From a bacterium (GTDB lineage Bacteria > UBA8248), in NCBI GenBank assembly GCA_965203325.1, contig OZ241875.1:1952001-2016000 (forward strand): 64,000 bases of DNA. Direction: 5' to 3'. The translations under genes were made by a program, and so were the position numbers. Numbering within the stretch: the first letter of the stretch is position 1; every line of letters starts with the position of its first letter. Shown piece by piece: positions 1,254 through 52,786 of this stretch. The notes under the pieces were generated by a model. It searched no databases. It was not told the DNA's origin and saw only the letters and a program-made list of their open reading frames with translations.

Positions 1254-1293
1254 GTGAGGAAACCCTCTTCCATCTTAAGACACATCCACCGCC

Positions 1294-2910: not shown

Positions 2911-3001
2911 GCGATAATGCCCCCGCGTATTTTCCTGCCGAGAGTGCGTGCGGACGTTCGTTCACAGCATATCACACCCGCCCTGAATCGTGAGCGAGTG
3001 C

Positions 3002-3436
3002 GGGATTGTTGAAAAAGTCCCCAAAAGAGGTTGTTGCCCCTCAATCAAGAGTGTTCACCGTCATTCCGGCGAAAGCCGGAATCCATTTTTATGCCTTTTG
3101 CTTTTTCGTTTCTTCGTTCGGATGTCTTTCATCCCGAGCGGGGAGGATCGGAATCGAACACAAAAAAGAAAGGCGAATTCTCTGGATTCCGGATCCGGAC
3201 GTCGCGCAACAACAAGGTCGTGGCCGCGCTGCCTGGAGAAAAGTCAAAATGGATTCCGGCTTTCGCCGGAATGACGAACGAAAACTTCTCGGCAAACGGG
3301 AAATTGCCGTGTAGGGGTCGCATACATGCGACCCACCCCGTGGACACAAAACCAGGGCCGCATATATGCGGCCCCTACACTCCCTTCGGCAGGCCGGAGT
3401 CTCGTTGCCGTCATTGCAGGCTTTTTCAACAACCCC
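3002..3436. repeat. Composite REP-like repeat cassette
   Basis: Outer inverted pair GGGATTGTTGAAAA (3002-3015) / TTTTCAACAACCCC (3423-3436). Inner inverted pair CCGTCATTCCGGCGAAAGCCGGAATCCATTTT (3058-3089) / AAAATGGATTCCGGCTTTCGCCGGAATGACG (3246-3276). GTAG-type palindromes at 3311-3334 and 3354-3379. Confidence 0.85.
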
Positions 3437-14859: not shown

Positions 14860-15472
14860 GTTAGTGGCTGGCGGGCGCTTCTACAGGAAGCGGAGGCGGT
14901 GGATATAGAGCCCTGCAGAAGTGTTGCCGTGCTGGTATTCGGGCATCGAGGCCGTGGATCTCGATCCGGAGGTTCACGACATCTGTCTGATCGGTATCTA
15001 CACCGGCATACGCCGGGGCGAGATCGTTTCGCTGGACCAAGAGCAGGTGGGCATGGAGCGGCACATCTTCAGGGTCGAAGAGACAAAGAGCGGGTAACAG
15101 TTGGAGCTTCCTATCACACGGCAACTCCCCGCCATCTTCGAGCGGCTCCTCGCGTATGGCGCGGAGTCTGCGGCGTGGCAGGACGGCTGGGTGTTTCCGT
15201 TCCTCAAGCAGCGGGGCCGGACATGTGGCGGAAATTGCGCGGTTCTATGTCGAAATCACCGATAAAGGTGGTACCCGGTTCTGGTTCCAAGGGCTGCACT
15301 ACGACTTCATCACGCTGGCGGAACGCGAACTCATGCTGCCGCGCTCGCTCAAGAAGCGGCTTGTAAACCATGCCCGGCCCGGCGACGTGACCGAGTGCTA
15401 CGCCACAGACTAGATGGAGGAGCAACTCCACGGGTCCGTCGACCGCATTGACGAATTGATGAAGGAAACATG
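14860..15472 (+). pseudogene. Degraded tyrosine recombinase
   Basis: YTGIRRGEIVSL...VEETKSG*QLELPITRQL, then FWFQGLHYDFITLAERELML..KRLVNHARPGDVTECYA, with stops and frameshifts. Confidence 0.75.
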
Positions 15473-35277: not shown

Positions 35278-36038
35278 GGCCAAGCCTCCTGTCAGGGTTG
35301 TCCCCGGCGGCGGGAGCCGGAGACCGTCTCCCTCTCCCCTGCCGGGCCTTTGCCCGGCTCCCCGCTTCGCTCCACCTCTCCCCCGCGGAGGTTCAAGTCC
35401 GGTGAGGACCGCCAGCGGACCTTGAGCGGCCTCCGTCCCGGCCGGGTAGCTCCGGAGAGAGACGGGAGCGGAAGCCCACCCGGGCCGGCGCGCGGTACGG
35501 GGTTCGGATGAGATGAGGGATGGGCGAACGGAGACGTATCGAGTGGGGTGGGGTTCGGGGCGGCGACGTTCCTGTCACCGCCGGTGAGGTTTATCGTCGG
35601 TGATCTAGTGCCGCAGACCGGGGTGTCGGCGTTGATGCTGCCGGGGCAGGGTTGCCGGGTTAGCTCCGCGCCGCCTGGCGGGTCGGGATTGTGCTCGGCG
35701 CCTTCGTCACCGATGGCGGGACTGCTCTGCCGGGTCGCGCCCGCCCCGTGTGGTCGTATCCGGACTCGCGGCCAGACCCCCCGCCCGCCGTCCTGCGCGG
35801 CGCGCCCGGGTCCGGCTGGCGGCACAGCGGGGTGGCCTTCCCCCCGCTTCCGGCGAGGGCGAGAAGGAACCCGGAGGGTTTCGGGACGGCGATACGTATC
35901 CGACGGGCGGCGGCGGCGAGGCTGGGCGGCGACCCCCCGGCGGCAGGCCGGCTGCGCAGCAGGGCGACGCTATCCCTGCGCCGCCCCCCCGCCAGACGTA
36001 TACAGGCCGGCGGCACGTGCAGGCGTGGCCGCCTGCGC

Positions 36039-36848
36039 TCACTCCCAGGCAGCGATGGTGGTCATGAGGGGCGTGTCGGTAACGATCTCCACTTCCTCCC
36101 GGGAGAGCTTCGCGAAGGCGAGGCACATCGCCACCTCCTCCCAGGAGTCGAGAGGGCCGTGCTCGATGCCGGTGGCTAGTTCGACCACGGTGAAGCGCGG
36201 CGGATAGACGGGCATCCCCTTGTGCTCTGCCGAGGAGTGATACGATCGGCGCGCGCAGGGAGTACATCTCACCCCTGCGTCCGCATGGGCGCCGCAGTCG
36301 ACGCAAAGCGACCGTGCCCGCCTGTCGTGATAGCGCTTCCTGCTGGCGGTGTTCTTGCGCGGACGGCGCTTTACGTCCCTTGCGGCGCACGAAGCGCACG
36401 TCGAAGCCTCATCGACGACTTCCGCACCACACCGACCGCATCGCCCCCCGGCGCGTCTTTCGGCGTAGAGTTTCCTCTCCGCCGCCCGCCGCGATTCCCG
36501 GCAGGGTTCGCAGACGGCGCCCCCCTCGACGGGCTCGCGTCCGCAGCGCGGGCACAAGCCGGCCTCCACCCGCTCGCGCCTGCGCTTCCTCGCCCTCTCG
36601 CGCGCCATGCGGCGGCGGCTCTCGGGGTCGCGTCCACCATATGGGGCTCCCCCCGCTCGGGCTTCGGCGTATCGGGCGCGTCGGGTCTCCCGGTCCCTCT
36701 CGAGGCAGGGCTCGCACAGACTGCGCCCGGGCGCAGGAGGAATCTTTCCGCACCGGGGACACATGCCCCGCGCGAGCCGGTCAGCGGTGCGTTTGCGGTG
36801 GCGCTCGCGCTCGTAAGCTCGGGCCTTTTCCAGGTCCTTGTAGGGCAT
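36039..36848 (-). CDS. Arg-rich protein with multiple CxxC zinc-knuckle repeats
   Basis: CPRC/CEPC twice, CGRC/CASC, CVDC/CTPC; GGAGG RBS. Confidence 0.7.
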   Translation of the reverse strand: MPYKDLEKARAYERERHRKRTADRLARGMCPRCGKIPPAPGRSLCEPCLERDRETRRARYAEARAGGAPYGGRDPESRRRMARERARKRRRERVEAGLCPRCGREPVEGGAVCEPCRESRRAAERKLYAERRAGGRCGRCGAEVVDEASTCASCAARDVKRRPRKNTASRKRYHDRRARSLCVDCGAHADAGVRCTPCARRSYHSSAEHKGMPVYPPRFTVVELATGIEHGPLDSWEEVAMCLAFAKLSREEVEIVTDTPLMTTIAAWE

Positions 36849-36940
36849 CCCGCCTCCCTCCCTGGGTTGGATGGAATCGTGCGGCCGGCGCCTGGCCGGC
36901 GAGACGTCTTGCGGGCGGAAGTCCTCCCGGGGGGGCTCCC

Positions 36941-37249
36941 TCACCGGGTGAGCATCCGGGCCCACACGAGGTGCTCGCCCCAGAGCTGCAGCCCGCTGCC
37001 GGGGACCTTGAGCCCCGTGCAGACGATGAGTTCGTCCCGCGCGGGACGCATCTCGCGTACGGCTTTCCGCGAGGCAGTAGCTCTCTTCGTCTTGCGCCTG
37101 CTCCCGGTCTTCGCCTCCCCGGCGGGCACGGGGCGGATGTCTCCGTCTATCGTGGAGCGGAAGCGCTCCACGGCGTATCGCTCATCGGCCAGGCCGCGGG
37201 TGAAGAGATGGGTGAGGAAAGTACTCGCTTCGGGTTTGGGTTTTCGCAT
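36941..37249 (-). CDS. Hypothetical protein
   Basis: AAGGAGG RBS before ATG 37249; no recognised motif. Confidence 0.4.
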   Translation of the reverse strand: MRKPKPEASTFLTHLFTRGLADERYAVERFRSTIDGDIRPVPAGEAKTGSRRKTKRATASRKAVREMRPARDELIVCTGLKVPGSGLQLWGEHLVWARMLTR

Positions 37250-37437
37250 CGCGCGCCTCCTTGGGTGGGTGGATGATGGCGGCGGAGGCGAGGCTCTAAC
37301 GCGAGGAGACTCCCTCCCGGCTCCCCTCCGCCGCCCCCTCCCGGCCGGACTCGGCCTCCCGGTGGCGCAGAGCCGCCGCCGGCGGGAAAGACGGCGGTCC
37401 GTTCGTTCAGGGGGGTCTTCGTTCGGCCCGGGGCCTT

Positions 37438-37779
37438 CTAGGGGAAGTGTGCGTCCGGGTCCTGGCCGAACAGCTCCTCCTCCTCGGCATCGCGGCGCCA
37501 GGCGTAGCGTCCCGCCCGGGCGGACCACTCGAAGTCCTCCTCCCGCCCGTCGGGCAGTTCGTAGCGATGGAAGGCGGACCAGTCCCCGCGGCGGAACCCC
37601 CGCCACAGGACGCACGAGAGAGTCGTGAGGAGGCACCAGAGGGCCGAACAGGCCCAGACGGCCCCCAGGGGACGGAGGCCGATGCCTGCCGCGAGAGAGA
37701 GGATTGTGGCGAGGAGCGCCAGGCCAAGTCCCGCCAGGACGAGGAGCCTCGCGCGGCGGGACGGTTTCCGGTTACTCAT
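37438..37779 (-). CDS. Small two-TM membrane protein
   Basis: GGAGG RBS; two hydrophobic segments and an acidic tail. Confidence 0.55.
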   Translation of the reverse strand: MSNRKPSRRARLLVLAGLGLALLATILSLAAGIGLRPLGAVWACSALWCLLTTLSCVLWRGFRRGDWSAFHRYELPDGREEDFEWSARAGRYAWRRDAEEEELFGQDPDAHFP

Positions 37780-38420
37780 GGGTCGCGCCTCCGGGATTGT
37801 GAGAAAGGGGATCGCGGGCGCCGCCCGGCCTCTCCGGCCCCGGCTACCGCGCCCCCTCGCGGCCCGGCTCGGCCTCTCGCCGGCGCGGGGCTTGGGGGAG
37901 GCGCGCGATGAACGCCCCGGCGCCCGGGCGCTGGAAACCGGATATCGAAAACCCTTGCAAGCGGGCGGTTTTTCAGTTTATTTCCGTGCGGTGCGGACTA
38001 CCGTATGCACCCGGGATGAGCGAACGGGACGAAAGAAGAGACGCGCATGGACAAGAACGCCGGAAGTGGTTCGATCATGCCCCGGGCGGAGCGCCGGAGT
38101 ATTGCCGCGATCAGGCTGTCCGGGCCGGCCCGAAGAGGGTGATGGCGCAATGATCCGGCAGGCACGCCCCGGGATGCGCGGAGGCTTGACTCCCCTCGTT
38201 TCCGTTTTGGTTACTTGCTGCGAATGGTGGATTCCGGACGAGACCCGGGGGAAATGAATGCTTCTCGATGATATCAACGGGATCAGGAGATTTTACTACC
38301 GCCGGAAACCCCTACCGTCTCTATACAAGCGGGAGAGCGGGATGCGCGCCCCTCCCGCCGGGAGGGGGACCGCGGTGAAGCGGGCCGGGAGGAGCGGCCT
38401 GCGCTACCCCCGGTCCGCCC

Positions 38421-40844
38421 CTACCAGCGCTTCGAACCCTTGAGCAGGAGGCCGCCTTCGGGTCTCCCGCCGCCGGCCTGTTCGGTGAGGCTCGCCTCGA
38501 GGCTCACCTCCGTGGCCGCCCCGGGCTTCCAGCGCGCGCCCGCGCGCCAGGTCTCCGCGTTCCCCGAGACCGCCACGCCCGTATAGGGCGTCAGCAGCCC
38601 CCGGGGGGCGTCCAGGCCCCAGGCCGCCTCGGCCTCGAAGCCCGCGGCGCCCGGCTCGAACGCACCGGCAGGCGCCAGGCCCGCCGCCTGCGACCAGAGC
38701 CGCTCCGCACCGCCCGCGGCCGCGCCCCACGAGGAGCCCGCCCGCAGCGTGAGGCCCCGTCCCCCGGAGCCGGGAGCGTACGCCACCGAGGCGCTCACGC
38801 CCCATTCCTCATAACCGCCGGCGCCGTGGGAGAGCAGGCCGCGCGCGCGCACCTCCGTCGTCAGAGGCCCCGAGGCCCAGCGGACAGAGCCGCCGGCCTC
38901 CACCCCGCCGCCCGTCTCCGCGTCGCCCGAATCGTTCCGGAACCCTATCTCCAGCGAGGGCGTCAGCACCGCATCGCCGAACCTGAGCGAGCGCGAACCC
39001 TCCAGCACGAGGCGCACGCGGCTCGTCTGCGCCTCGGTCTCCGCCAGGCCCGCCGCAGCGTCCGAGCGCGTGTTCGTCACCAGGACGTCCGCGCGGAGCG
39101 CGAGCTCGAACCCGCCCGCCTCGCGCGCGGGCAGAACGACCCCGCGCGCCCCGGCCGCCGCCATGCCCATCGCCACGTCGGCCTCCACCGGGGACGACCC
39201 CCCGGGCGTGAGCGTCATCTCCCCCTGCCCGTGGCCCACAGCGCCCCAGAGCGAGAACGTCCCGCTCACACGGTAGCGCGCGTAGGGGTAGACACCCGTA
39301 AGCGTGCTCTCCACCTCGCCCGCGCAGCCCGCCTCGCACGCGCCGCCCGCCTTGTACTTGCCGTCGCCCGAACTCCGCGAGAGCGCCACGCCCACCAGCC
39401 AGCGCGCCCGCTCGTAGTCGAAGCCCACGGTCGCCGTCGTCACGTCGCCCTCGAGGGAAAGATCGCCCTCGGCGCCCTCGAACGAGGAGCGCGCGCCCCG
39501 GCCCCAAAGCGACCAGCGCGAGCCGGCGTCCACCTTCTCCGCCGAGGCCATGTGAAACGAACTCGCGAGCAAGAGGTCGGACATCGCGAGCTCGCGCACC
39601 GAAGGCGCCGGCGCCTCCCCGCCGCGCCCGAGCCGGACCTCCCTCTCCTTAAGCAGGGCCTCGGCGAGGCGCGACTCGATGGCCTCGCGCTCCGCCCCGC
39701 CTGAGAGGCTGTGGCCGCCCAGCACGACGCCCGCGGCGGCGCCGCCCGACAGGCGTCCGTCAATCGCCTCGGCGACGTGGCCCGCCGCCGCGCGCCCGAA
39801 GCGCGCGAGCCACATCCTTTGCAGCGGGTCGTCGTTCCGGATCACCCCCTTCGCCTGGCGGTGAATGCCCCGCAGATACGCCCCCCGGGGGTTCGACAGC
39901 TTGAGCTTGAACGTCTCCTTCCCCTCGTCGACCGCGTCGTCGAGCAGCGGGACGCTCACCGTCTTCGCCGTCTCGCCCGGCGCGAAGGTCAGCGTGCCCG
40001 ACGTGGCCGTGTAGTCCGCCCCCGCCGCCGCCGTGCCGTCCTCGGTCGCGTAGTCCACCGAGACCGCGTGCGCCGCGGCGCGGTTGAGCGTCACCGCAAA
40101 GTCCAGAGATGCGTCCTTGCCTTCCTTCCCCCGCGCGTCCGCGACCCGGATCCGCACCGGGCCGCCTATGGTCATACTCGACGTGTTCGTCAGCGCCCGT
40201 CCGTCGGCCGTGCACACCGCGCCCGCCGCGCCGCAGGCGCGCCCGCCCGCAAGCGTCACCGTCATGTCCTTCCACGACTTCGGCGCGACGCGCACCCGCC
40301 ACAGGCCGGACGCCACCTTGCGCACGTCCTTCACCCTGCCGCCCGTCACGGCGAAAGAGGCCGCAGCCGGGGCGCTCGCGGTCTCGCCCAGCGCCTCGCT
40401 GAAGCGCACCTCCAGCGCGAACGCCGCCTTGCCGTCATGCTCTTCCGGCGCTCCCTCGAACGCCGCCGTCAGCGGCTCCGACGCCTGCTGCTGCGCCACC
40501 TGCTGCCGCTCCGGCTCCGGCGCCGCCTCGCGCGTCACCGTCACCGTATAGGTGCGCGTGTAGCGCGCGTCCGGCGCCGTCACCACCACCACGATGGTGT
40601 TCTCGCCCACGACCAGCGCCACCGGCGTCGACGGGTCGCCGCCGTTCACCGTCACCCGCGCATTCGGGTTCTCGGGGCTCGCGTTCACCGTGACCTCGGT
40701 CACGTCGTGGGCCACCGTCGCGCTGTAGGTCGCGCGGTCCGGGTCGAACGCACCGTCCAGGCTCACCTGCCCGCTCGCGGCGGCGCCCGTCGCCATGCAC
40801 AACGCCGCCGACAGCAGCACCGCAATCCGTACCATCTTCTTCAT
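38421..40844 (-). CDS. Autotransporter-like outer membrane protein with cadherin-like and Calx-beta domains
   Basis: Signal peptide; cadherin-like beta-sandwich; Calx-beta (VSVDYATEDGTAAAGADY..GTLTFAPGET..DDAVDEGKETF); WLARFGR linker; beta-barrel ending GLLLKGSKRW. Confidence 0.85.
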   Translation of the reverse strand: MKKMVRIAVLLSAALCMATGAAASGQVSLDGAFDPDRATYSATVAHDVTEVTVNASPENPNARVTVNGGDPSTPVALVVGENTIVVVVTAPDARYTRTYTVTVTREAAPEPERQQVAQQQASEPLTAAFEGAPEEHDGKAAFALEVRFSEALGETASAPAAASFAVTGGRVKDVRKVASGLWRVRVAPKSWKDMTVTLAGGRACGAAGAVCTADGRALTNTSSMTIGGPVRIRVADARGKEGKDASLDFAVTLNRAAAHAVSVDYATEDGTAAAGADYTATSGTLTFAPGETAKTVSVPLLDDAVDEGKETFKLKLSNPRGAYLRGIHRQAKGVIRNDDPLQRMWLARFGRAAAGHVAEAIDGRLSGGAAAGVVLGGHSLSGGAEREAIESRLAEALLKEREVRLGRGGEAPAPSVRELAMSDLLLASSFHMASAEKVDAGSRWSLWGRGARSSFEGAEGDLSLEGDVTTATVGFDYERARWLVGVALSRSSGDGKYKAGGACEAGCAGEVESTLTGVYPYARYRVSGTFSLWGAVGHGQGEMTLTPGGSSPVEADVAMGMAAAGARGVVLPAREAGGFELALRADVLVTNTRSDAAAGLAETEAQTSRVRLVLEGSRSLRFGDAVLTPSLEIGFRNDSGDAETGGGVEAGGSVRWASGPLTTEVRARGLLSHGAGGYEEWGVSASVAYAPGSGGRGLTLRAGSSWGAAAGGAERLWSQAAGLAPAGAFEPGAAGFEAEAAWGLDAPRGLLTPYTGVAVSGNAETWRAGARWKPGAATEVSLEASLTEQAGGGRPEGGLLLKGSKRW

Positions 40845-40858
40845 CGGACATGCCCCCC

Positions 40859-43825
40859 TTAATTTCCGGTATTCAAGTCAAGCGCCCGCAGCCGGGCGTT
40901 CGCCCCGTCGGCGATCGTGATCCCGACCGTGGACGGCCTGCCCGGCGCCACGCCCGACGGCAGGTCCGGCTGGATCACCGCCACCTGGAAGCGCTCGTCG
41001 TCCGTGTCGTCGTCCTCGTGGGTCCTGATCGTGCCCGTCCCGCTCGTCGCGCCGGCGGCGATCGTGATGCTCCTGATGAACCCGTGGTCGGCCGTCTCCG
41101 ACGTGACGAACCTCACCCTGAGCGGGATCTCCACGTCGTTCGCCAGCGGCTCCGTCAGGGCCACCTGCAACTCCACCGGCGAGCCCTCGGCCACCGTTTC
41201 GCGCACCGCCCGCAGCGTCACCTCCGGCAAGTCGGTGAGGTCCTTGATCCTCACCACCACCGAGGCCGGGCTGCCCGCCCGCACCCCCGGCGGCAGGCTG
41301 GCCGTGTCCAGCGCCACCGTGAAGGTCTCGTCGTCGGCGTCGCTGTCCGGGTGCGTCGGGATATTGACGACGCCGCAGCTGGTCTGGAGCCAGCCGCTGA
41401 TGGCGATGGAGTACGCCGTGCTGATCGGCAGGCGGCCGTCCGTGTCGCCCGACAGCGACACCCCCCAGTCGCCGTCCTCCGAGCGGTTCGCCGAGGTCCC
41501 GTGGCTCAGCGTCACCGGAATGCGCGCGGTGCCCTGCGGCACCGCCGACAGGCACGCCTCCACGCTCGCCGACGCGCCCTCGTTCACCGGGTTCGGGCTG
41601 ACGGAGAGCTTCACCGTGGAGGAAGTGAGCGTCCCCAGGCTCACCGGCACGGATTGGCCGACGGTCCAGCTTGGGGGCGTTTCGCCCTGGTTGGAATAGG
41701 CCCAGCTCGCGATGACACCCTCGTAGCCCGGGCCCGTGGACAGAACGGCGTCTGCGATACGGAACCGGCTGTCGCCAACGTTCAGCACAAGGCCCCACTT
41801 GCGGTCCAGGGCCTTGTCCAGGTGGAAGAGGAGAAAGCCGCCGATGTTCGTGAGCCGGAGACCGAGGATCCTGAAACCGACCCCGCCGTATTTGAAGTCG
41901 GTGGGCGTGAACTGTCCGACACTCGGGGTGGCTCGAAAGCCCTTCCATTTCCCTCCGTCTCCGACCGTCATGGTGCCTAAGACGGCGGTCGTCACCTTCG
42001 CCGGGAGCGCCTGCCGCGTGACGGTGACCGTGTAGTCCTTGGTCGTCGTCGTGTCCTCGGCCGTCACCCGCACCGTGATCGCGTTCGCGCCCACACTGAG
42101 CGCGATGGGGCCGCTCGCCTGGCCGCTGGTCACCGTGTTGCCGGCCACCGTCACCGTCGCCTTGCCGGTGTCCGCCACCGTCGGCGTCAGCTTCACGTGC
42201 GTCCGGTCGTTCGCCACCGACGCCGTGTAGCTCGTCGTCGTCGCCCCGAAGGTGCCGATGCTGAAATTCGTGAACGTGCCGGTCGAACTCGTGGCGCTGC
42301 CCGCCGTCAGGCCGCTCAGGTTCGCGTTCGTGGACAGGGTCTGCGCCGCCCGCCGCGTGACGGTGACCGTGTAGTCCTTGGTCGTCGTCGTGTCCTCGGC
42401 CGTCACCCGCACCACAAGCGTGTTCGCGCCCACGTCCAGCGCGATCGCCGAACTCGCCGAGCCGCTCGTCACCGGCGTGAAACTGCCCGCATTCCCCTTG
42501 CGCACCCCCACCGTCGCCTTGCCGGTGTCCGCCACCGTCGGCGTCAGCTTCACATGCGTCTGGTCGTTCGCCACCGACGCCGTGTAGGTCGTCGTCGTCG
42601 CCCCGAAGGTGCCGATGCTGAAATCCGTGTATTGGCCGGTCGAACTCGTGCTGCTGCCCGCCGTCAGGCCGCTCAGGTTCGCGTTCGTGGAACGGGTGAC
42701 CTGCTGCGCGCAGGACGTGCCGATGCTGACCGTAACCGCAGTGCCGACGGTAAAGGCGAATTCGGAGGACCATTGGCCATTGGTAAAGCCGTTGATCAAG
42801 GTTAGCGCGTACGCGGTCGAGCCGACGCAGAATTTCAGCGCAGCCAGATCGGAATTCCCTGCGGCAGAGAGAGTCAGGTTGGAGCTGGAGGACGCACTGC
42901 TCTTCCAAATTTGCTCTATCGAGTATGACGTTCCGCCAATGGTAAACGGTCCGTCATCCGAAAGCGTGGCTGCGGTGGAGCACTTCTGTGACGAACCGCT
43001 ACGGGCATTTGAGCAACCTATCGCGGTGGCCGACAGAGTCTGCGGCGTCAGCGTGGCGGACCAGACGGGCGTGCTGGAGGTCTGCACCGCAGAGCCGTTG
43101 ACGCGGATGAGCAAGGACGTGGTCCGGGTACCCCAAGTCGCTCCCACCGGGTTTAGAGTATTGGAGGCAACAAGGGAGGTGTCGGCGATACTCCATCCCG
43201 TCGCCGCGCCGCTGTCCTCGTTATCGCTTGTCGTCGTGGACGGCCTGTCGCCAAAGCCAGCGCTGGGGCTATACAAAACCACGAAATAGGCGGTGCTTGC
43301 CGTGAGCGTCGTGCTGCTTGGAGCCGTGTAGGTCGCAATGCCGCCTGAGAGGCTCGATGGAGTCGTCAGGTCCGCCACCTTCATACTCGGGTTTCCGCCG
43401 CTGGCGGACCACAACTCTGCCGTTAACCCCGCAAGCTCTTGCGCGGTGTAGGTGCCGTGCAGATGTACCTCGATGCTTGTGAGCGTGTACCCGCCGGTGT
43501 TGCTCCCGGTGGTAAACGCCTGTGCGTGGCTGGAGAAGAAACTGCCGTTGTTTCCGCCTGCCGTCTGCCCAACGTTGCTCACCAGCACGGCGGCGGCGGC
43601 CGGAGCGGCGGCGAATGGGGAGAACGCCGCAAGCAACAGCGCGAGGACGGGAAGGAGACGGAAGCGGCGGGCGCGGGCGCGCCCGGTGCAGGCGTCAGGC
43701 CGTCTGGAGCCCGCCGATGTCGAGAGAGCCGGCTCGCGCGCCCCGGCCGGGCGCACTTCACGCCGCCGGGCCGCGCTGCAGAACGCCGCCGCGAGCAGCA
43801 TCGAAATCCGTGCTATGTTCTTCAT
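40859..43825 (-). CDS. Secreted Ser/Thr-rich adhesin-like protein with cadherin-like and Calx-beta-like repeats and no barrel
   Basis: Signal peptide; two cadherin-like repeats; two D.D.DDE.F.V Calx-like motifs. Confidence 0.8.
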   Translation of the reverse strand: MKNIARISMLLAAAFCSAARRREVRPAGAREPALSTSAGSRRPDACTGRARARRFRLLPVLALLLAAFSPFAAAPAAAAVLVSNVGQTAGGNNGSFFSSHAQAFTTGSNTGGYTLTSIEVHLHGTYTAQELAGLTAELWSASGGNPSMKVADLTTPSSLSGGIATYTAPSSTTLTASTAYFVVLYSPSAGFGDRPSTTTSDNEDSGAATGWSIADTSLVASNTLNPVGATWGTRTTSLLIRVNGSAVQTSSTPVWSATLTPQTLSATAIGCSNARSGSSQKCSTAATLSDDGPFTIGGTSYSIEQIWKSSASSSSNLTLSAAGNSDLAALKFCVGSTAYALTLINGFTNGQWSSEFAFTVGTAVTVSIGTSCAQQVTRSTNANLSGLTAGSSTSSTGQYTDFSIGTFGATTTTYTASVANDQTHVKLTPTVADTGKATVGVRKGNAGSFTPVTSGSASSAIALDVGANTLVVRVTAEDTTTTKDYTVTVTRRAAQTLSTNANLSGLTAGSATSSTGTFTNFSIGTFGATTTSYTASVANDRTHVKLTPTVADTGKATVTVAGNTVTSGQASGPIALSVGANAITVRVTAEDTTTTKDYTVTVTRQALPAKVTTAVLGTMTVGDGGKWKGFRATPSVGQFTPTDFKYGGVGFRILGLRLTNIGGFLLFHLDKALDRKWGLVLNVGDSRFRIADAVLSTGPGYEGVIASWAYSNQGETPPSWTVGQSVPVSLGTLTSSTVKLSVSPNPVNEGASASVEACLSAVPQGTARIPVTLSHGTSANRSEDGDWGVSLSGDTDGRLPISTAYSIAISGWLQTSCGVVNIPTHPDSDADDETFTVALDTASLPPGVRAGSPASVVVRIKDLTDLPEVTLRAVRETVAEGSPVELQVALTEPLANDVEIPLRVRFVTSETADHGFIRSITIAAGATSGTGTIRTHEDDDTDDERFQVAVIQPDLPSGVAPGRPSTVGITIADGANARLRALDLNTGN
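42015..42692. repeat. Tandem intragenic duplication of a cadherin-like domain
   Basis: ~42015-42332 and ~42354-42692 are nearly identical at DNA level (STNANLSGLTAGS...KDYTVTVTR). Confidence 0.85.
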
Positions 43826-43924
43826 TTGGAATGCCCCCTGTTCCGAGATTTCGGGTTCAAGCTGACGCAGCCGATCTTTCCGCGAGAGGCGGATTCCTGC
43901 GGTATGCGCCGCCTCGAACCCGGG

Positions 43925-44137
43925 CTGGTGTCCGCTAATTGCCGTTATCGGCCCCCAGAAGCCCCGTTTTCCGCCGAAAAACCCGATTCGGGGTGCATTC
44001 GGGCCGCAAATGAGCGAAACATGAGCGAAAAAAGGCGCAAAACGGCGCTCGAAACCCCTCCGGGAACCCCGGAATCGCGCTTGACATGGCCGTGAGAGGT
44101 GTTAAATTTTCTGATAACGGCAATTATCGGACTCCAG
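43925..44137. promoter_or_regulatory. Candidate invertible promoter segment
   Basis: Perfect inverted repeat TAATTGCCGTTATC (43936-43949) / GATAACGGCAATTA (44113-44126), enclosing TTGACA (44081) - 16 nt - TAAATT (44103) with a TGn extension. Confidence 0.65.
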
Positions 44138-44315
44138 AAACCCGCCGTTTCGCCGGTATTCCCCTGCGAAACGGCTTTTTTTATTGGAAATTCCCCGCCG
44201 TCGTCTATACTCGGCAATCGACGAGGCCCTGGAGCGGCCTCAGAGGATAGAAACGGCCGCCGACCCGGAAGGTTGGCTTCTCGGCATGACGACGGGGGCA
44301 AGACCATCCGACCCG

Positions 44316-44552
44316 ATGCAGGACATCGCTTTGACGAGGAGGCCGGCCCGACCGGCCCGTGCGGCCGCCGACCTGGCGAAGGCGTCGATGTCTGAGAACA
44401 CGCGGCGAGCGTACGAGACGGCGCTCAGGGGATTCGAGCGCTCGGGAAACCCGGAGACCGACGCCGGGATAGCGGCGTACCTGGGGGAACTCTACGAGGG
44501 GGGGCACTCGGCGGCCGTGGCCGCGATGGCGAGGCTGCGCTACGGGCAGTGA
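44316..44552 (+). pseudogene. Truncated Cre-like tyrosine recombinase (core-binding N-terminus only)
   Basis: ASMSENTRRAYETALRGFE...DAGIAAYLGELYEGGHSAA, then a stop; no catalytic domain. Confidence 0.65.
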
Positions 44553-44595
44553 GGTCCGCCGCGTGCAGGACGCCCGTCTACTCCCGAATATCTCC

Positions 44596-45315
44596 CTACC
44601 GCCTCTTCCTCCTCCGGGCGGCTCTCTCCTCGGACGTGGAGGTCCACCTCCGGGCGGAGGCCCACTTCTCGAGGTCTTCGAGCAGGTAGCGCACCCGGTA
44701 TCCGGTGCGAAGAAAATCCGGCCCCTCTCCGCTCACGCGGTAGCGCTCCAGCGTCTTGGGCGAGAGGCCGAGCCAGGCGGCCGCCTCCCGCGTGTCCAGG
44801 TGGTTCTCCTCCGCGCGCTCATCGACGCCTCCCGCGGCGCCGGGTTCCCCGGCGGCGTCCCACGTCCCGTCGAACGGGTCGGGCAAGTCCGCGAGCCTCT
44901 CGCGTATGGCGCGGATCTCCTCTCGGGTCGCGTTGGCCGCCATCCAGGCGCGCACCCGGTCGAAGGTCTTGAGATACGGCGAGGCGCCCCGGCGCAGCCG
45001 CCCCACGAAGGAGGGATTCCCCACGGTCTCCTCGCCCAGGATCGAGACCTTGGTCCCGCTCACCACGAGAAACGCCTCGACCTCGGCCACAAGGAGCGGT
45101 CCCAGGGGCGGGTACCCCATGAACGCGAGCACCCGGTCCGCCGTGTCGACCCGCAGGGGCCGCCCCCGGGCGTGCAGTCCCACGAAGCCGGGAATGCCCA
45201 GCGCACCCACCCCGAAGCGCCGCGCGCTCATCCCTCGGCGCGCGCGCCAGAGCGCAATGCTCCGGCGCATTCGCTCGTCCAGCGGGATGCCGGTATCGTC
45301 TTTGAACGCGGTCAT
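44596..45315 (-). CDS. Excisionase-like regulator: two repeated HTH-like domains plus C-terminal HTH_17/AlpA
   Basis: LDTREAAAWLGLSPKTLERYRVSGEGPDF..GYRVRYLLEDLEKW; duplicated ..G.P.FV.....G......T.DRV.A.M motif. Confidence 0.8.
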   Translation of the reverse strand: MTAFKDDTGIPLDERMRRSIALWRARRGMSARRFGVGALGIPGFVGLHARGRPLRVDTADRVLAFMGYPPLGPLLVAEVEAFLVVSGTKVSILGEETVGNPSFVGRLRRGASPYLKTFDRVRAWMAANATREEIRAIRERLADLPDPFDGTWDAAGEPGAAGGVDERAEENHLDTREAAAWLGLSPKTLERYRVSGEGPDFLRTGYRVRYLLEDLEKWASARRWTSTSEERAARRRKRR

Positions 45316-45895
45316 GGCGCGGGAACATAAGGAAAGTGCGAGCGCCCGTTCAATCGTTGTTTCTAGCGCGGAAGGTACACCCGGGAAGAGTCCGCGACCG
45401 CGTCCGTGCGCGGATCGCTCATCGGTTCAGCCTGAAATCACGGGTGTTTTCCAGAAAACGAGGGTCGCCGGAGAACGTGAAGCGAGGCGCTACGGAAAAA
45501 AAGGAAGGACGCCGCCTTCCGGGCGAGAGCTCTAAAGCCTCTTTCGTTCACGCCGCGGCGCCCTGTTTCGCGAGCCGTCCCTGCGAATGGCGCTCCGGCA
45601 TGACCGGCGATTGGCGGCGCCCGGCGAGTTGCATCTCGACCGGAGAAGCCCCTGCCATGGCAAGGCGCTGCGCGCTACCCGTCCGCAGGTCGAAACGGCG
45701 CCGATTCCCTTGTTTCATTCGTTTCTATCGTATCGTATGCTGATGTTCCGGGTCGTCCGCCAAATACAATACGGCCAAGCCGAAATAGGCGGACATTCCT
45801 TCGTGGATTGTATGCCAACGGCCCGGATTTTCCCGGTCCTGTCCGATTGACCGTTTTGCCTTACACGTCTTTCGATGATTGGTCGGGCATGGTGG

Positions 45896-47373: not shown

Positions 47374-47459
47374 GTAGGGACAGGTCGCGACCTGTCCCTA
47401 CGGGCCTCCCGGTTGGTTATATACGCCGAACCACGAAAAGGGGTCTTTTTCAACGACCC
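47374..47459. repeat. GTAG-type REP palindrome and closing arm of the split cassette
   Basis: GTAGGGACAGGTCGCGACCTGTCCCTAC (47374-47401); TTTTCAACGACCC (47447-47459). Confidence 0.8.
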
Positions 47460-47559
47460 GCGCTTGCGCCCTCATCGCGCACGCTTTTCCGCACGCGCCG
47501 TTTGATGGTATGAATGGCGCGTCTTCATCGTTCCATCATCTCTCCTCCCAGGAATCCGC

Positions 47560-48747
47560 ATGAGCACAGGCGCCAACATCCTCATCATCGCGTCGAGCCA
47601 CTCGGTGAACTCACTCTACAACCGGATCCTGACGCCCATTCTCCCGCTCATCATGGCGGATTTCGGCCTCAACTACGCGCAGACGGGCCTCATCGCCTCG
47701 GTCTACGCGCTATCGAGCAGCCTCTTTCAGTTGCCGATTTCCTTTCTGGGCGATTTCACGGGCAAAACCCGCCTCATCCTGGGGCTGTCTCTCCTGTTCA
47801 ACGCCCTGCCCGCCTGGTTCTACGGCTATTCGGATACCTACGCGGCCCTGCTCACCTTCGTCTTCCTGAGCGGTTTGGGCTGTTCGGCCTATCACCCGGC
47901 GGCGGTTTCGATGATCGCCGCAGAAAGCCCCAAAAACCGCGGCCTCGCCATGGGCCTTTTCAAGGCGGGGGGCGATTTCGGGAGCATCCTGACGCCGGTG
48001 GCCATGGGCTGGCTCACGGTCTATCTCGCGAGCTGGCGCTCAGCGGCGCAGTATTTCGTGCTGCCCGGCGTCGCGTGCGCGCTCCTCATCTGGCTGCGCT
48101 TTCAGGACGCGCCCAGCGAGCGCAAGTCGATGGCGAAAGAGGCCAGATCCACATTCAGCGAGTTGCTCGGCGACAAATTCATGATCCTGATGACGCTGCT
48201 CTCCTCCTGCCGGGTGATGGGTTTGCGAGGCATCATGACGTTCCTGCCGCTCCTGCTGGCCGAGGGGCTGGGGCTCGGCACCATCGAGGTGGGCTGGGCC
48301 ATCACGGGCTATTTCCTCGTCGGAACGGTCTTCGCCGTGATATGGGGGAAATACGCCGACCCGAAAAACGAGACGCGCATCATCCTCTTCATGATGGCGA
48401 CGAGCGCCGCCTCCCTCGCTTTCTTGTCGCAGGCCGAATCCGTGGTCATCTTCTTCGGTCTGCTCGCGCTTCTGGGCGCGTGCCTGAACCCCTCACAAAG
48501 CATCATGCTCACGCTCACCACCGGCGTGGTTCGCGAGAAAAACCGCACGAGCGCCATCGGATTGATGTATACGGCCAACGAGGCGGCGTCTGTGGCGTCG
48601 CCCTTCCTGGGAGGACTCATCGCCCAGGCGGTGGGCTTGAGGGAATCGTTTCTCTTCTACGCCCTGCTCTGCCTCGTCGCCACGAGCCTCGCCTGGCTGA
48701 TTCACGCGGAGCAGAAAAGGCGCGCGCGCGTGAGCACAGTCGCCTGA
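47560..48747 (+). CDS. MFS transporter
   Basis: 395 aa with about 12 hydrophobic segments; LGDFTGK, GLGCSAYHP, RGLAMG motifs. Confidence 0.9.
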   Translation: MSTGANILIIASSHSVNSLYNRILTPILPLIMADFGLNYAQTGLIASVYALSSSLFQLPISFLGDFTGKTRLILGLSLLFNALPAWFYGYSDTYAALLTFVFLSGLGCSAYHPAAVSMIAAESPKNRGLAMGLFKAGGDFGSILTPVAMGWLTVYLASWRSAAQYFVLPGVACALLIWLRFQDAPSERKSMAKEARSTFSELLGDKFMILMTLLSSCRVMGLRGIMTFLPLLLAEGLGLGTIEVGWAITGYFLVGTVFAVIWGKYADPKNETRIILFMMATSAASLAFLSQAESVVIFFGLLALLGACLNPSQSIMLTLTTGVVREKNRTSAIGLMYTANEAASVASPFLGGLIAQAVGLRESFLFYALLCLVATSLAWLIHAEQKRRARVSTVA

Positions 48748-48855
48748 AATCTTTACAGGGGAGCGCCGTTTTACTAGACTGGGCGAAACAGCCAATCACA
48801 TCATCCGGGCGTCTCTCCCGGAGAAGAGAAACTCACACGATAGGAGTCCAACGCA

Positions 48856-49764
48856 ATGAGTACGAAAAACACGCTCGACAGTCTGGAAGTGGTGCCGACC
48901 GGCGCCGCCCTGGGGGCCGAAATCAGGGGCGTCGACCTGGCCCAGCCCATGTCAGAAGAGGTGAAGCAGGCCCTGCGCGACGCCTGGACGGAGCACCTCG
49001 TCCTGTTGTTCCGGGATCAGGAGATGACCGAGGAGCAGCACCTCGACGCCACGCGCATCTTCGGCGAGGCCGTCGTGCCCGCCGCCAAGGCCTATTACGA
49101 CAAGGCCGGGAAAGAGCAGACATGGGCCGCCAAGTACGCCGAGATCACCGTCGTCCACAACCTGGATGATGACGGCAACCCCGTGCAGCAGAACGAGAGC
49201 CTGGGCAGCGGCGAGGTCGTCTGGCACAACGATAATTCCTACGCCGAAAAACCGCCTGCGGGCAGCATGCTCTATGGACGGAGGCTGCCGCCGTCGGGCG
49301 GGAACACGTGCTTCAGCAACCAGTACACGGCGTATGAGACCCTGCCCGAGGACGTGAAACAGAAAATCGAGGGCAAGACCGCCGTCCACGATGCGAGCCG
49401 GAACTCGGCCGGCACGCTCCGGCCCGGCGTCAAGCTGCCCACCAAGCCCTCGGAAGTTCCCGGTCCGCACCACCCCCTCGTATGCACGCACCCCGAATCC
49501 GGCAGGAAGGCGCTCTACCTGGGACGCAGGCGGGCCTATCCGTCGCAATACATCGACGACATGGAAGAGCAGGAGAGCGAGGCGCTTCTCGATTTCCTCT
49601 GGGATCACGCCTGCCGTGACGAACTCGTCTGGGCGCACGTCTGGCGGCTCGGCGACGTGCTGCTGTGGGACAACCGCTGCACCATGCACTACCGCGAGCC
49701 CCACGCGGGCACGCATCCGCGCCTCATGCACCGCACCCAGATCGCCGGCGCGCAGCCGGTGTAA
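48856..49764 (+). CDS. TauD/TfdA family Fe(II)/2-oxoglutarate dioxygenase
   Basis: LGAEIRGVDL, WHND (HxD), HPLVCTHPESGRKALY, WDNRCTMH, RLMHR. Confidence 0.93.
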   Translation: MSTKNTLDSLEVVPTGAALGAEIRGVDLAQPMSEEVKQALRDAWTEHLVLLFRDQEMTEEQHLDATRIFGEAVVPAAKAYYDKAGKEQTWAAKYAEITVVHNLDDDGNPVQQNESLGSGEVVWHNDNSYAEKPPAGSMLYGRRLPPSGGNTCFSNQYTAYETLPEDVKQKIEGKTAVHDASRNSAGTLRPGVKLPTKPSEVPGPHHPLVCTHPESGRKALYLGRRRAYPSQYIDDMEEQESEALLDFLWDHACRDELVWAHVWRLGDVLLWDNRCTMHYREPHAGTHPRLMHRTQIAGAQPV

Positions 49765-49840
49765 GGTTGCGGGAGACGAAATACATCCCACAGCCTCCCG
49801 GTAATCGGCCGGGAGACCGGTTATCCGATTAGAATCACTC

Positions 49841-49995
49841 GTAGGGACAGCCCCTCCTCGGGGCTGTCCCACAAGTCGCGACCTGTCCCTACCTTATTGC
49901 AGACTAGCAAGATAATTTTATCCTTACGCGACAGGACAATCCCGACGAGAAGGCATTGCCTTTCACTCCCATCTTGAGGGGGTTGTTGAAAAAGC
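49841..49995. repeat. GTAG-type REP palindromes with a GGTTGTTGAAAA arm
   Basis: GTAGGGACAGCCCC..GGGGCTGTCCC, GTCGCGACCTGTCCCTAC, GGGGGTTGTTGAAAAA. Confidence 0.7.
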
Positions 49996-50210
49996 CCCGG
50001 AATGGCGGCGTGTACCGGGGTTTCGTTCAAAACCCCGTTTGCACGGCGGGTGGAAATGTTTGTATAGTAATGTTAACTGTATAATCAGCTGGATTGTATA
50101 CAGTATACTTTATTGATGGCGGTTTTCCTCCGCGAATCGCGGATGGGGTAACACGCTGATAATCAAAGTATTTCTGGAGCCGATTCATCATCTTGCGCTT
50201 GGAGACGCCC

Positions 50211-51380
50211 ATGGCAGAAGAAAAACCCCGCCAGTTCGTTGGAAGTGTGGAGTTCAAGAAGGGTCTCGAGGGGGCCATCACGAACGAGAGCGCCATCAGC
50301 TACGTGGATGGGGCGAACGGCAAGCTCATATACCGCGGATACAGCATCGACGACCTCTGCGCCGGAGGCGGTGGATACGAGGAAACGGCCTATCTGCTGC
50401 TGAACGGAAATCTGCCCACACAGGCGGAACTCGACGTCTTCAACGCGGATCTGGCCTTGCGCCGGCCCATCCCCCAGCCGGTGAAAGACCTGATCGTGCA
50501 GATCGCCGGCATGTGCCATCCCATGAGCACGCTGCGCACCGCCGTCTCCATGCTCGGCTGCCTGAACCCGAAGGAATTCGAGGTGACGGTGGAGAACGAT
50601 TACGACATCGCCCTCACGCTGACGGCGCAGTTCCCCACCCTCGTGGCGGCCATCCAGCGGGCGAGACGGGGCGAATTCCTCATCGAGCCCGACCCCGCGA
50701 AGGGACTCTCCGAGGATTTTCTCCGCATGATGACGGGCGAGACGCCCGACGCGCGCACCGTGGAGGTGATGGACATGGCCCTCATCATCCACGCCGAACA
50801 CGGCATGAACGCCTCCACCTTCTCCTCGATGGTCACGAACAGCTCCCTGACGGATTTCTACAGCTCCATCGTCGCAGGCATCGGCTCGCTCAAGGGGCCG
50901 CTGCACGGTGGCGCGAACGAGGCCACGCTGCGCACGTTCCAGGAGATTGGAGACCCCGCCACGACGGAAGGCTGGTTCGCCGAGGCGAAGACGAAAAAGG
51001 TGAAAGTGATGGGCTTCGGCCACCGCGTCTATAAGGCCTACGACCCGAGGGCGCGCCTGTTCGACCCCATCGCCAGGGAATTCTCCGAGCGCGCCGGCAC
51101 GAGCCATCTCTACGAGATCGCGAAAAAGCTCGAAGCCCTCGTGGTGGCGGACTTGGGCGGCAAGGGCATCTTCCCCAACGTCGATTTCTTCTCAGGCATC
51201 ATCTACGACGCCATGGGCATCGACACCGACATGTTCACGCCCATCTTCGCCGTGCCGCGCATCGCCGGGTGGTCGGCGCGCATTCTGGAGTACCTGCCGG
51301 ACAACCGGCTGTTCCGACCCCGCGCGGTCTACATCGGCGACCTGGAATCGCAGTACACGCCGATCGCCGAGCGCGGCTAG
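50211..51380 (+). CDS. Citrate synthase / 2-methylcitrate synthase family
   Basis: LIYRGY, HAEHGMNAST, GPLHGGAN, MGFGHRVY, PNVDF. Confidence 0.95.
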   Translation: MAEEKPRQFVGSVEFKKGLEGAITNESAISYVDGANGKLIYRGYSIDDLCAGGGGYEETAYLLLNGNLPTQAELDVFNADLALRRPIPQPVKDLIVQIAGMCHPMSTLRTAVSMLGCLNPKEFEVTVENDYDIALTLTAQFPTLVAAIQRARRGEFLIEPDPAKGLSEDFLRMMTGETPDARTVEVMDMALIIHAEHGMNASTFSSMVTNSSLTDFYSSIVAGIGSLKGPLHGGANEATLRTFQEIGDPATTEGWFAEAKTKKVKVMGFGHRVYKAYDPRARLFDPIAREFSERAGTSHLYEIAKKLEALVVADLGGKGIFPNVDFFSGIIYDAMGIDTDMFTPIFAVPRIAGWSARILEYLPDNRLFRPRAVYIGDLESQYTPIAERG

Positions 51381-51397
51381 ATTCAATAAGCAAGCCG

Positions 51398-51432
51398 AAA
51401 AGCGGCCTCTCGAACGGGGGCCGCTTTTTTTC
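51398..51432 (+). terminator. Intrinsic terminator
   Basis: AAAAGCGGCCTC...GGGGCCGCTTTTTT. Confidence 0.8.
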
Positions 51433-51486
51433 GTCTGGTTTTTCCAAAGGACTTCATGCGCAACCTGAAACAGAGGAGACATCTCC

Positions 51487-51912
51487 GTGGCGTTTGAAGA
51501 GGGCTTCGTGGTCGAGACGAAGGGGTTTACCGACGTTCTGAACGTCACCCCGCAGGTGGAGCGCGTCGTTTCGGCGAGCGGGGTGCAGAGCGGGATCGTC
51601 CTCGCCTTCACGCCCGGCTCGACGGCGGGCTTGACGACGATAGAGTATGAACCGGGGGCGGTTTCGGATTTGAAGGAGGCTATCGCCCGCATCGCGCCCG
51701 AGGGCATCGCCTATGCGCACGATGCGCGCTGGGGGGACGGTAACGGCTTCTCCCACGTCCGCGCCGCCCTGCTGGGGCCGAGCCTCGCCCTGCCCGTCCG
51801 GGAAGGCGCGCTCGTCACCGGCACCTGGCAGCAGATCGTCCTGGTCGATTTCGACAACCGCCCGAGAAGCAGGCGGGTGGAAGTGCAGGTGCTGGGGGTC
51901 AATCGCGACTGA
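51487..51912 (+). CDS. yjbQ: YjbQ family (secondary thiamine-phosphate synthase) protein
   Basis: GSTAGLTTIE.EP, DGNGFSHVRAALLG, GTWQQI...DFD. Confidence 0.9.
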   Translation: MAFEEGFVVETKGFTDVLNVTPQVERVVSASGVQSGIVLAFTPGSTAGLTTIEYEPGAVSDLKEAIARIAPEGIAYAHDARWGDGNGFSHVRAALLGPSLALPVREGALVTGTWQQIVLVDFDNRPRSRRVEVQVLGVNRD

Positions 51913-51940
51913 TGAAGGAGCGATTGCATGCGGATCAGTG

Positions 51941-52166
51941 GTAGGGACAGGTCGCGACCTGTCCCTACGAAAGCAAAAGATGAAACCCCTGGATTCTTCC
52001 CCCTCACCCTGAGTAGCGGCGAAGCCGCCTATCGAAGGGCGCATGTCTATTGTAGGGGTCGTATATTATGCGACCCGTGTTTTGTCGGTGAAAGGCCGGG
52101 CCGCATATATGCGGCCCCTACAATACCTTCGCGTTTTGGGTAGGGGCGGACCTGTGTGTCTGCCCA
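51941..52166. repeat. Cluster of GTAG-type REP palindromes
   Basis: GTAGGGACAGGTCGCGACCTGTCCCTAC; GTAGGGGTCG..CGACCC; GGGCCGCATATATGCGGCCCCTAC; GTAGGGGCGGAC..GTCTGCCC. Confidence 0.8.
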
Positions 52167-52211
52167 ATCGCTCGGACGAGAACCCGGACTCTCGCAGCGA
52201 AGTATGAAAGA

Positions 52212-52631
52212 CTAATCGTCGCCTTCGGCGAACTCCTCGAAGGTGTAGAACAGCCCGTCGAGCACGCGCGCGGCCTGCTCGTCCACGCCCGGCTTGTCGA
52301 GAGGCAGGTCGATGGCGTAGCGGAACACGCCGTCGTGGTAGTGCTCCACCTTGTGCTCTTCCTCCTCGCCCGCTTCCTCCATGCCGTCGTAGACGAAATC
52401 GTCAATCGGGTCCTTGCTGTCGAGGATGGCGAGTTCGATGTCCTCGTTCATGTAGCGGTCTTTGGTGGCGAAGCTGATGCGGAGTTTGCCCTCGGCCTCG
52501 TTCTTCACGAACTCGAACCAGCAGACCTCGTTCATGACGAGCCGGATGGAGCGGCCCGAAGGGTCGGGTTCGGGCGTGAAGCGGTCGTCTGCCGCGTAGC
52601 GCTTGATCATGCCTGTAATGATGTCTGCCAA
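52212..52631 (-). CDS. Acidic hypothetical protein
   Basis: 139 aa with host-like codon usage; GGAGG RBS; TTG start. Confidence 0.7.
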   Translation of the reverse strand: MADIITGMIKRYAADDRFTPEPDPSGRSIRLVMNEVCWFEFVKNEAEGKLRISFATKDRYMNEDIELAILDSKDPIDDFVYDGMEEAGEEEEHKVEHYHDGVFRYAIDLPLDKPGVDEQAARVLDGLFYTFEEFAEGDD

Positions 52632-52786
52632 AACAGGAGCCTCCCTGCGTCAGGTTTTGTAAAGTGTGTGGAAATCCAGTCTTGCCTCGTTCGGGGGGAA
52701 ATATAGCTTGGAGTCTTCGTTTCGCCAAGCGGCGCCGGGAGTCGGGAATGGCGTGCGACAGGAGCGGGTGAACCGGATAGGCGCGC

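Follow-up and report, generated by a model that had tools for sequence, protein, structure and literature searches.

Promoter switches that are flipped by tyrosine recombinases are a well-known kind of regulatory element, and most of what is known about promoter invertons comes from gut bacteria and pathogens. In the fimS switch of the type 1 fimbriae of E. coli, a short invertible segment with the promoter of this surface-structure operon lies between inverted repeats of 9 bp, next to the genes of the tyrosine recombinases FimB and FimE, with IHF and Lrp as further participants, and alternates between ON and OFF states. The loxP sites of phage P1 Cre are built from two inverted arms of 13 bp around an asymmetric spacer of 8 bp, and the relative orientation of the spacers decides on inversion. 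In Bacteroides, the main invertase, Mpi, is a serine recombinase. According to PMC2268961, promoter inversions occur at many dispersed surface-component loci of Bacteroides through globally acting recombinases, and in M. penetrans each of 38 mpl genes has its own invertible promoter, with two Xer1-like recombinases proposed (PMC2268961, citing Horino 2003).

The locus described here lies within a window of 64,000 nucleotides, the whole stretch of DNA analyzed, to which all coordinates refer unless a genome position is given. At 43925-44137 of the window, a 213-bp segment ahead of a surface-protein operon contains two inverted lox-like sites that enclose a promoter. From its sequence and that of its relatives, we consider this segment to be a site-specific invertible promoter, i.e., a phase-variation switch, assembled in the OFF state, with a probability of about 0.8. 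Such a switch would resemble fimS in its short promoter segment, inverted repeats, and adjoining tyrosine recombinase gene. However, the recombinase is not of the FimB/FimE type, the sites have a lox-like 14-6-14 architecture, an excisionase-fold gene is present, and the genome carries 16 such loci rather than one. Compared to loxP, the spacer is 6 bp and the arms are about 14 bp, with one of the four arms being degenerate and overlapping the -10 element; identity to Cre is low, and the natural role would be that of a chromosomal promoter switch rather than plasmid maintenance. The likeness to the mpl (P35) system lies in dispersed surface or lipoprotein genes with their own promoter invertons and in recombinases acting on many loci, whereas the cassettes described here mostly carry a Cre-like gene, have spacers that differ between loci, and belong to a sponge-associated host. 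The Bacteroides invertons differ in recombinase family, site consensus, and phylum. What is distinctive here is the combination of lox-like sites with locus-specific, matched spacers, the cassette-borne recombinase and excisionase-like genes, and the host. The listings of a literature search gave nothing linking invertons or phase variation to DNA switches of sponge symbionts.

Each lox-like site is 34 bp long and consists of a 14-bp arm, an asymmetric 6-bp spacer, and a second 14-bp arm, with TAA-N6-TTA at its core. The leader-side site (43925-43958) reads CTGGTGTCCGCTAA-TTGCCG-TTATCGGCCCCCAG, with the outer arm at 43925-43938, the spacer at 43939-43944, and the inner arm at 43945-43958; a direct count from the sequence shows its arms to be palindromic at 11 of 14 positions. 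The terminator-side site (44104-44137) reads AAATTTTCTGATAA-CGGCAA-TTATCGGACTCCAG and ends with its outer arm (44124-44137), preceded by the spacer at 44118-44123. Its inner arm (44104-44117) is degenerate, matching well only across the 7 spacer-proximal bases, and overlaps the -10 element of the promoter. The two spacers are exact reverse complements and are in inverted orientation. A repeat finder returned the arms as 25-nt stretches (43925-43949 and 44113-44137) that are 92% complementary and 163 nt apart, and the window has two occurrences of the 20-nt core, one per strand, whereas none of 100 shuffles contained it. Both sites, as well as the exact complementarity of TTGCCG and CGGCAA, had been proposed in an earlier sequence-only reading, and all were reproduced here, the first site at 43925-43958 and the second up to 44137. 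The window contains no tRNA genes.

The DNA between the two sites, about 150 bp, carries a strong predicted sigma-70-type promoter (44081-44108, plus strand; TTGACA-16-TAAATT with a TG extension) with 10 of 12 matches, compared to a mean of 0.1 sites in shuffled sequence. It aims away from the operon ATG at 43825, which is the OFF state as assembled, and the promoter scan (10/12, plus strand) thereby agrees with the near-consensus sigma70 promoter of that direction in the sequence-only reading. Across 52 switch copies, the -35 element is invariant, and the two longest conserved blocks of the inner segment are GCGCTTGACATG (44077-44088), which includes the -35 element, and TGAGAGGTGTT (44093-44103), which extends from the promoter spacer across the TG extension as far as the first base of the -10 hexamer; each column of both blocks is at least 94% conserved. 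On the far side of the terminator-side site, a terminator-like hairpin (44144-44175, plus strand; inverted repeat I8) is followed by a run of seven T (44176-44182). The predicted RNA fold of the hairpin has an energy of -24.8 kcal/mol and a z-score of -2.81, and none of 200 shuffles was equally stable. A simple terminator scan, unlike RNA folding, made no call at 44144-44182. Of the 16 genomic copies, 15 have a T-run after the outer arm. Since the OFF-oriented promoter would fire into this hairpin and T-run, only a short terminated transcript is predicted. A further promoter-like site after the hairpin (44184-44211, plus strand; TTGGAA-16-TATACT; 9 of 12 matches), conserved in most copies, probably serves the recombinase gene as a promoter of its own.

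Between the switch and the ATG lies a leader of 99 nt (43826-43924, minus strand), the presumptive 5' untranslated region (UTR) of the ON state. It is conserved among copies, and in those with an inverted inner segment, this flank is still attached to the gene. Over 43400-44800, a promoter scan of the minus strand found no promoter-like site that could serve the operon instead. Promoter strength, the start of transcription, and termination are in all cases predictions from consensus and folding. Within the leader (43880-43915, minus strand), we also noted a conserved hairpin, GAGGCGG-N16-CCGCCTC, which was read from the alignments rather than from folding; in the lipoprotein class of cassettes, a C is replaced by T with the pairing preserved as G-U. 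This hairpin could be a structure of the 5' UTR.

Within the 4.39-Mb single-contig genome, the site motif (at most 2 mismatches) had 31 matches, compared to 0 for a reversed control pattern. The matches formed inverted pairs, all with a single fixed spacing, and the missed partner was recovered with a looser regular expression, resulting in 16 pairs; all family sites in the genome were paired, with no orphans. A recurrence of 16 pairs at the same spacing versus 0 control matches is far beyond chance. When aligned by their inner segments, the 16 copies are approximately 90% alike, and the DNA outside is conserved on both sides, with a leader into a surface-protein gene on one side and the hairpin and T-run on the other. 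The order of parts in the cassette is one or more surface genes, the leader, the switch, the terminator, the recombinase gene, and the excisionase-like gene. With the gene side held fixed, the promoter faces the terminator and recombinase side in 13 of the 16 switches, including that of the window, and faces the leader, i.e., is ON, in the other three (genome positions 2078028, 2672536, and 3869514). These three copies have the opposite orientation of the invertible segment, which corresponds to 43945-44117 of the window and comprises both inner arms and the promoter. Their outer arms stay with the flanks, the two inner arms are exchanged, and the spacer reads the same. This places the strand exchange at the spacer and is the outcome expected of a conservative type of site-specific inversion in which crossover takes place within the spacer; it is explained neither by a transposon that inserts in either direction nor by paired operators. 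Paralogue comparison therefore supports the invertible promoter that had been proposed from the window alone: the flipped segment, with inner arms and promoter inverted, was found in 3 of 16 paralogues and genus-wide in 6 of 52 switches. The six ON switches come from 3 of 10 genomes (three from the window's genome, L026 and L040 from genome G012, and L060 from genome G014).

The genes behind the switches fall into two classes. The operon of the window starts with a gene for a class A large surface protein of 988 amino acids (aa) (MKNIARISMLL..; 40859-43825, minus strand), which matches PF12733 with 93.1 bits and an NCBIfam choice-of-anchor R domain with 90.7 bits (cut-off, 30). The second gene (38421-40844, minus strand) encodes a surface protein of 807 aa with Cadherin-like and Calx-beta domains (PF12733, 66.9 bits; PF03160, 74.5 bits). 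The two open reading frames (ORFs), named in the earlier reading as the operon with the ATG at 43825, were found at these coordinates, running left from that ATG, and the label "adhesin" given to the operon would follow from its Cadherin-like, Calx-beta, and choice-of-anchor R domains. Large proteins are preceded by 9 of the 16 switches; seven of these proteins have the N terminus of the window protein, and two begin with MKMRHRMERL.... The remaining seven switches precede proteins starting with MMFKDKYI..LAGCGGGGG, which look like lipoproteins by the lipobox consensus, and the genes of this class have a conserved 5' leader of about 215 to 230 nt behind the switch. A separate repeat at 36001-37906 (ORF 36222-37628, 468 aa, no Pfam match) has at least 8 genomic copies of 87 to 93% identity, which are often close to surface-protein operons.

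We additionally compared the spacers across the genus. After 37 further copies had been fetched, 52 pairs from 10 genomes were parsed, with one contig-end copy left out; none of the 52 had more than one candidate left site. The spacers were exact reverse complements in 51 of 52 pairs, with 23 different spacers that vary at all six positions, and 8 kinds were present among the 16 switches of the window's genome. When the partners were shuffled, matched spacer pairs numbered 3.1 on average and 11 at most, compared to the 51 of 52 observed, a value that is not a probability, as the switch copies share descent and the shuffle tests ignore kinship. Matched spacers would be expected if partner sites must share their overlap for exchange or if exchange homogenizes the overlap. 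In none of the 52 pairs was the complementarity of the 14-nt outer arms perfect; their differences lie at fixed positions without compensation. As co-variation is limited to the spacer and the arms are uncompensated, the pattern fits strand exchange and not an RNA or DNA stem. One switch, at C1:3371519-3371731, is the sole switch of the 52 with differing spacers (TTGCCG versus TTGCCA). Its mismatch may be a fresh mutation or the product of exchange between two switches.

These comparisons also bear on the idea that the repeats belong to a miniature element of the MITE kind, inserted in either orientation, or that they pair into an RNA or DNA stem. A short element with 16 or more copies and terminal inverted repeats has the look of such an element, yet both outer flanks are conserved at all copies and the change of orientation is confined between the spacers. 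Only the 6-bp spacer co-varies, with uncompensated arm differences in 52 of 52 pairs, and an Rfam search of 43300-44700 matched no family. We therefore regard a MITE-like or stem-forming origin as extremely improbable.

Intact tyrosine recombinase genes adjoin six of the 16 switches (705706, 1308422, 1411863, 1827406, 2078028, and 2585528), on the hairpin side of the switch. At the other 10, the gene is decayed or absent, and beside three (1713267, 2672536, and 2765582) no recombinase gene was recognizable. The intact paralogue P0001 matches PF00589 with 63 bits (cut-off, 27.1), and its closest solved relative is Cre (E value of 1.8e-14 over residues 91 to 343; bit score, 57). The top 17 of 19 PDB sequence matches were Cre or its variants (1.8e-14 to 2.5e-12), and the next were XerC-like (4.3e-6) and XerA (0.0019) proteins. 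The motifs LLRVSE, SKT, GHSLRVG, GRW, and GRY of P0001 align with the Cre catalytic motifs R..K..H-x-x-R..W/H..Y. Of these catalytic residues, H294, R297, W320, and Y329 do not vary among 20 homologues, and R195 and K220 hardly vary. The recombinase is not a member of the FimB/FimE-type NCBIfam families NF007371 and NF007370 (18.7 and 17 bits; cut-offs, 222 and 221) or of the Xer families (XerA, 60.2 versus a cut-off of 220; XerC, 42.2 versus 335; XerD, 31.3 versus 330).

In the window, the Cre-like gene is a remnant (44184-44552, plus strand), an ORF of 122 codons with an in-frame deletion of 225 codons that takes out the whole catalytic domain. It reads ..AAVAAMA and then directly RLRYGQ, where the intact paralogue has ..AAVAAMAVAALRF...GAMARLRYGR. 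The near invariance of M35 among homologues makes the ATG at 44286 the likely true start of the remnant. Over the aligned parts, the six intact paralogues are 75 to 90% identical to the remnant, and a Pfam search of its 122 codons gave no match, including none to PF00589. The neighboring recombinase had been called truncated: the window copy is indeed disabled, but by an in-frame internal deletion rather than by simple truncation. Since it lacks the catalytic domain, flipping at this locus would have to occur in trans. The sequence-only reading had left the switch as either frozen or flipped in trans, and of these two, action in trans is plausible, given the six intact paralogues that were found in homologous elements. 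Two of the three ON switches are without an intact adjoining recombinase, which is consistent with trans action; the gene could also have been lost after flipping.

A frozen relic, i.e., a former switch from which the recombinase was deleted, leaving the operon either silent for good or dependent on a different promoter, would agree with the missing catalytic domain of the local recombinase and with the OFF orientation of 13 of the 16 copies. We consider this unlikely. Both sites of the window are intact with perfectly matching spacers, and the leader-side outer arm is identical to those of two flipped copies. The genome provides intact recombinase paralogues, the lack of an intact neighboring recombinase is shared by two of the three copies that are ON, and matched spacers have been kept in 51 of 52 pairs of the family.

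Other recombinase-related sequences were observed in the window and the genome. Two tandem tyrosine recombinase genes lie at 6275-6748 and 7435-7926 (plus strand), with a fragment at 14990-15202; about 11 tandem pairs of this kind are among the 38 PF00589 matches of the genome. By their sequence, these tandem pairs look like a separate family of mobile elements. A 118-bp relic of the 3' end of the recombinase gene (45558-45675), about 83% identical to the intact paralogues and in inverted orientation, lies upstream of the gene for an HTH_17 protein, which is thus bracketed by recombinase-derived sequence.

That gene (44596-45315, minus strand) is convergent with the recombinase gene and encodes a DNA-binding protein of 239 aa (PF12728, 32.4 bits; cut-off, 27). 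The protein consists of two N-terminal helical repeats of about 55 residues each and a C-terminal HTH_17 domain of 70 residues with the excisionase/RDF fold. By sequence, the best solved relative of the HTH_17 domain is the excisionase RdfS (8dgl; E value, 1.9e-8), and the protein matches PHROG 66, "excisionase." The best Foldseek matches of the structure model (pLDDT, 81) were RdfS 8dgl and Xis proteins of phages and transposons, at a target-normalized TM score of about 0.74 and E values of 2e-3 and weaker, whereas the two N-terminal repeats had no match among solved structures in Foldseek. The gene lies beside 11 of the 16 switches, with 10 copies that are 93 to 100% identical and an eleventh that is partial. 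This adjacency makes the protein a candidate direction-setting or architectural cofactor. Elsewhere, two tandem recombinase pairs are followed by a protein whose C-terminal 70 residues are 63 to 66% identical to the HTH_17 protein found beside the switches.

In G012, which is the closest genome, window positions 47445-52745 have an orthologue (96% identical) that directly abuts the orthologue of positions 1-3015, indicating that the window locus has no counterpart there. About 44 kb (~3015-47445), with the switch, the operon, and the tyrosine recombinase pair, is missing at this syntenic site, and a search for direct repeats or tRNA genes flanking this stretch was negative. The 17 switch loci of G012 (L024-L040) have left and right flanks that best match different loci of genome G000. 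Because the flanks are a mosaic of different G000 loci, no one-to-one orthologues are definable. The leader and gene side and the recombinase side were seen to be reassorted between G012 and G000, as exchange between switches would do. Another kind of repeat, 35 to 55 nt long, was noticed at ~49838-49893 and ~49961-50004 and recurs in dozens of places with 85 to 97% identity in each of five related genomes; it looks like a REP-like element family.

The mosaic of cassette flanks between genomes could point to a mobile module of recombinase and excisionase, for which the sites serve primarily as operator, resolution, or attachment sites, with inversion being incidental. The excisionase-fold gene would suit such a module, as would the resemblance of its C-terminal domain to the third gene of the tandem-recombinase elements, and with the -10 element overlapping the inner arm of site 2, binding of the recombinase could repress the promoter. 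However, the sites always occur as inverted pairs at a fixed spacing without orphans, every pair lies directly before a surface-protein gene with a conserved leader, and inverted states exist. Resolution or attachment, moreover, needs no conserved strong promoter between the sites. We judge a primary function of this kind to be very unlikely. The MITE, operator, and RNA-stem readings were rejected on the basis of flank conservation, inverted pairs, and co-variation limited to the spacer.

Of the 22 other genomes of the genus, 12 contain the switch element, and it was not found in the 18 genomes from outside the genus that were searched; all of the compared genomes are metagenome assembled. In a search of representative genomes covering 185,579 species, the family pattern was found in 42 stretches, all in records titled "Nitrospinota bacterium" or "bacterium." The stretch of the window occurs in 22 listed public runs, available as Logan contigs, with coded labels or labels of sponge, coral, or marine metagenomes, and no RNA run was among the 22 listed. 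In the four best runs, the contigs on window positions 42500-45500 were short pieces (the longest, 554 nt), many of them paralogous, with no strand-changing joints. A metagenome scan with the family pattern gave 0 matches.

Homologues of the recombinase were more widespread in the databases, with 1,387 at an E value of ≤1e-10 among the candidates scored. A few were labeled as other lineages, e.g., Rhodospirillaceae, on short contigs and by their record labels alone. In metagenome contigs, relatives were found at 67 loci with 30 to 74% identity. A strict scan of these loci for pairs of TAA-N6-TTA sites was negative (0 of 67). A looser pair scan found one pair (L129), and reading the best inverted repeats added another (L132). 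In both, a TTGACA promoter lies between sites that have reverse-complementary 6-bp spacers, are about 200 bp apart, and are located just upstream of a recombinase of 44 to 46% identity. No such pair was found in the other 65 of the 67 contigs, including those of the closer relatives L104-L107 (63 to 74%). With only these two loci positive and the closer relatives negative, a spread beyond the genus is only hinted at.

For the invertible promoter that we propose, a mechanism can be outlined as follows. The Cre-like tyrosine recombinase would bind the arms, exchange strands within the spacers, and thereby invert the segment. In the OFF state, the promoter would fire into the conserved hairpin terminator before the recombinase gene. 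In the ON state, its transcripts would cross the leader-side site and then the leader of 99 nt before reaching the operon of the 988-aa and 807-aa proteins. The switch of the window would be flipped in trans by one of the six intact paralogues, whose target arms it shares. The surface proteins governed by the 16 cassettes of the genome would be of two families, one of large Cadherin-like proteins and one of lipoproteins.

More tentatively, the 6-bp spacers might act as an address code, by which shared recombinases flip the promoters independently while recombination between different switches, by which the chromosome would be rearranged, is restrained and the three-domain excisionase-fold protein biases the flipping in its direction or rate; we regard this as possible rather than probable. 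Spacers of this kind would be the equivalent in nature of the heterospecific lox sites that have been engineered. The system is compact and seemingly portable, with a Cre-like enzyme of about 313 aa, 34-bp sites, and many natural, pair-matched spacer variants. It could supply new sets of recombinases and sites, and it raises the question of orthogonality of the natural spacer variants.

As proposed here, a battery of 16 switches in one 4.4-Mb genome would control Cadherin-like proteins and lipoproteins. This points to stochastic variation of the cell surface in symbionts of an early-branching animal, which would bear on the escape from host phagocytosis or from phages. If the address code is true, an uncultured sponge symbiont would have a phase-variable surface of a combinatorial kind, made from two protein families.
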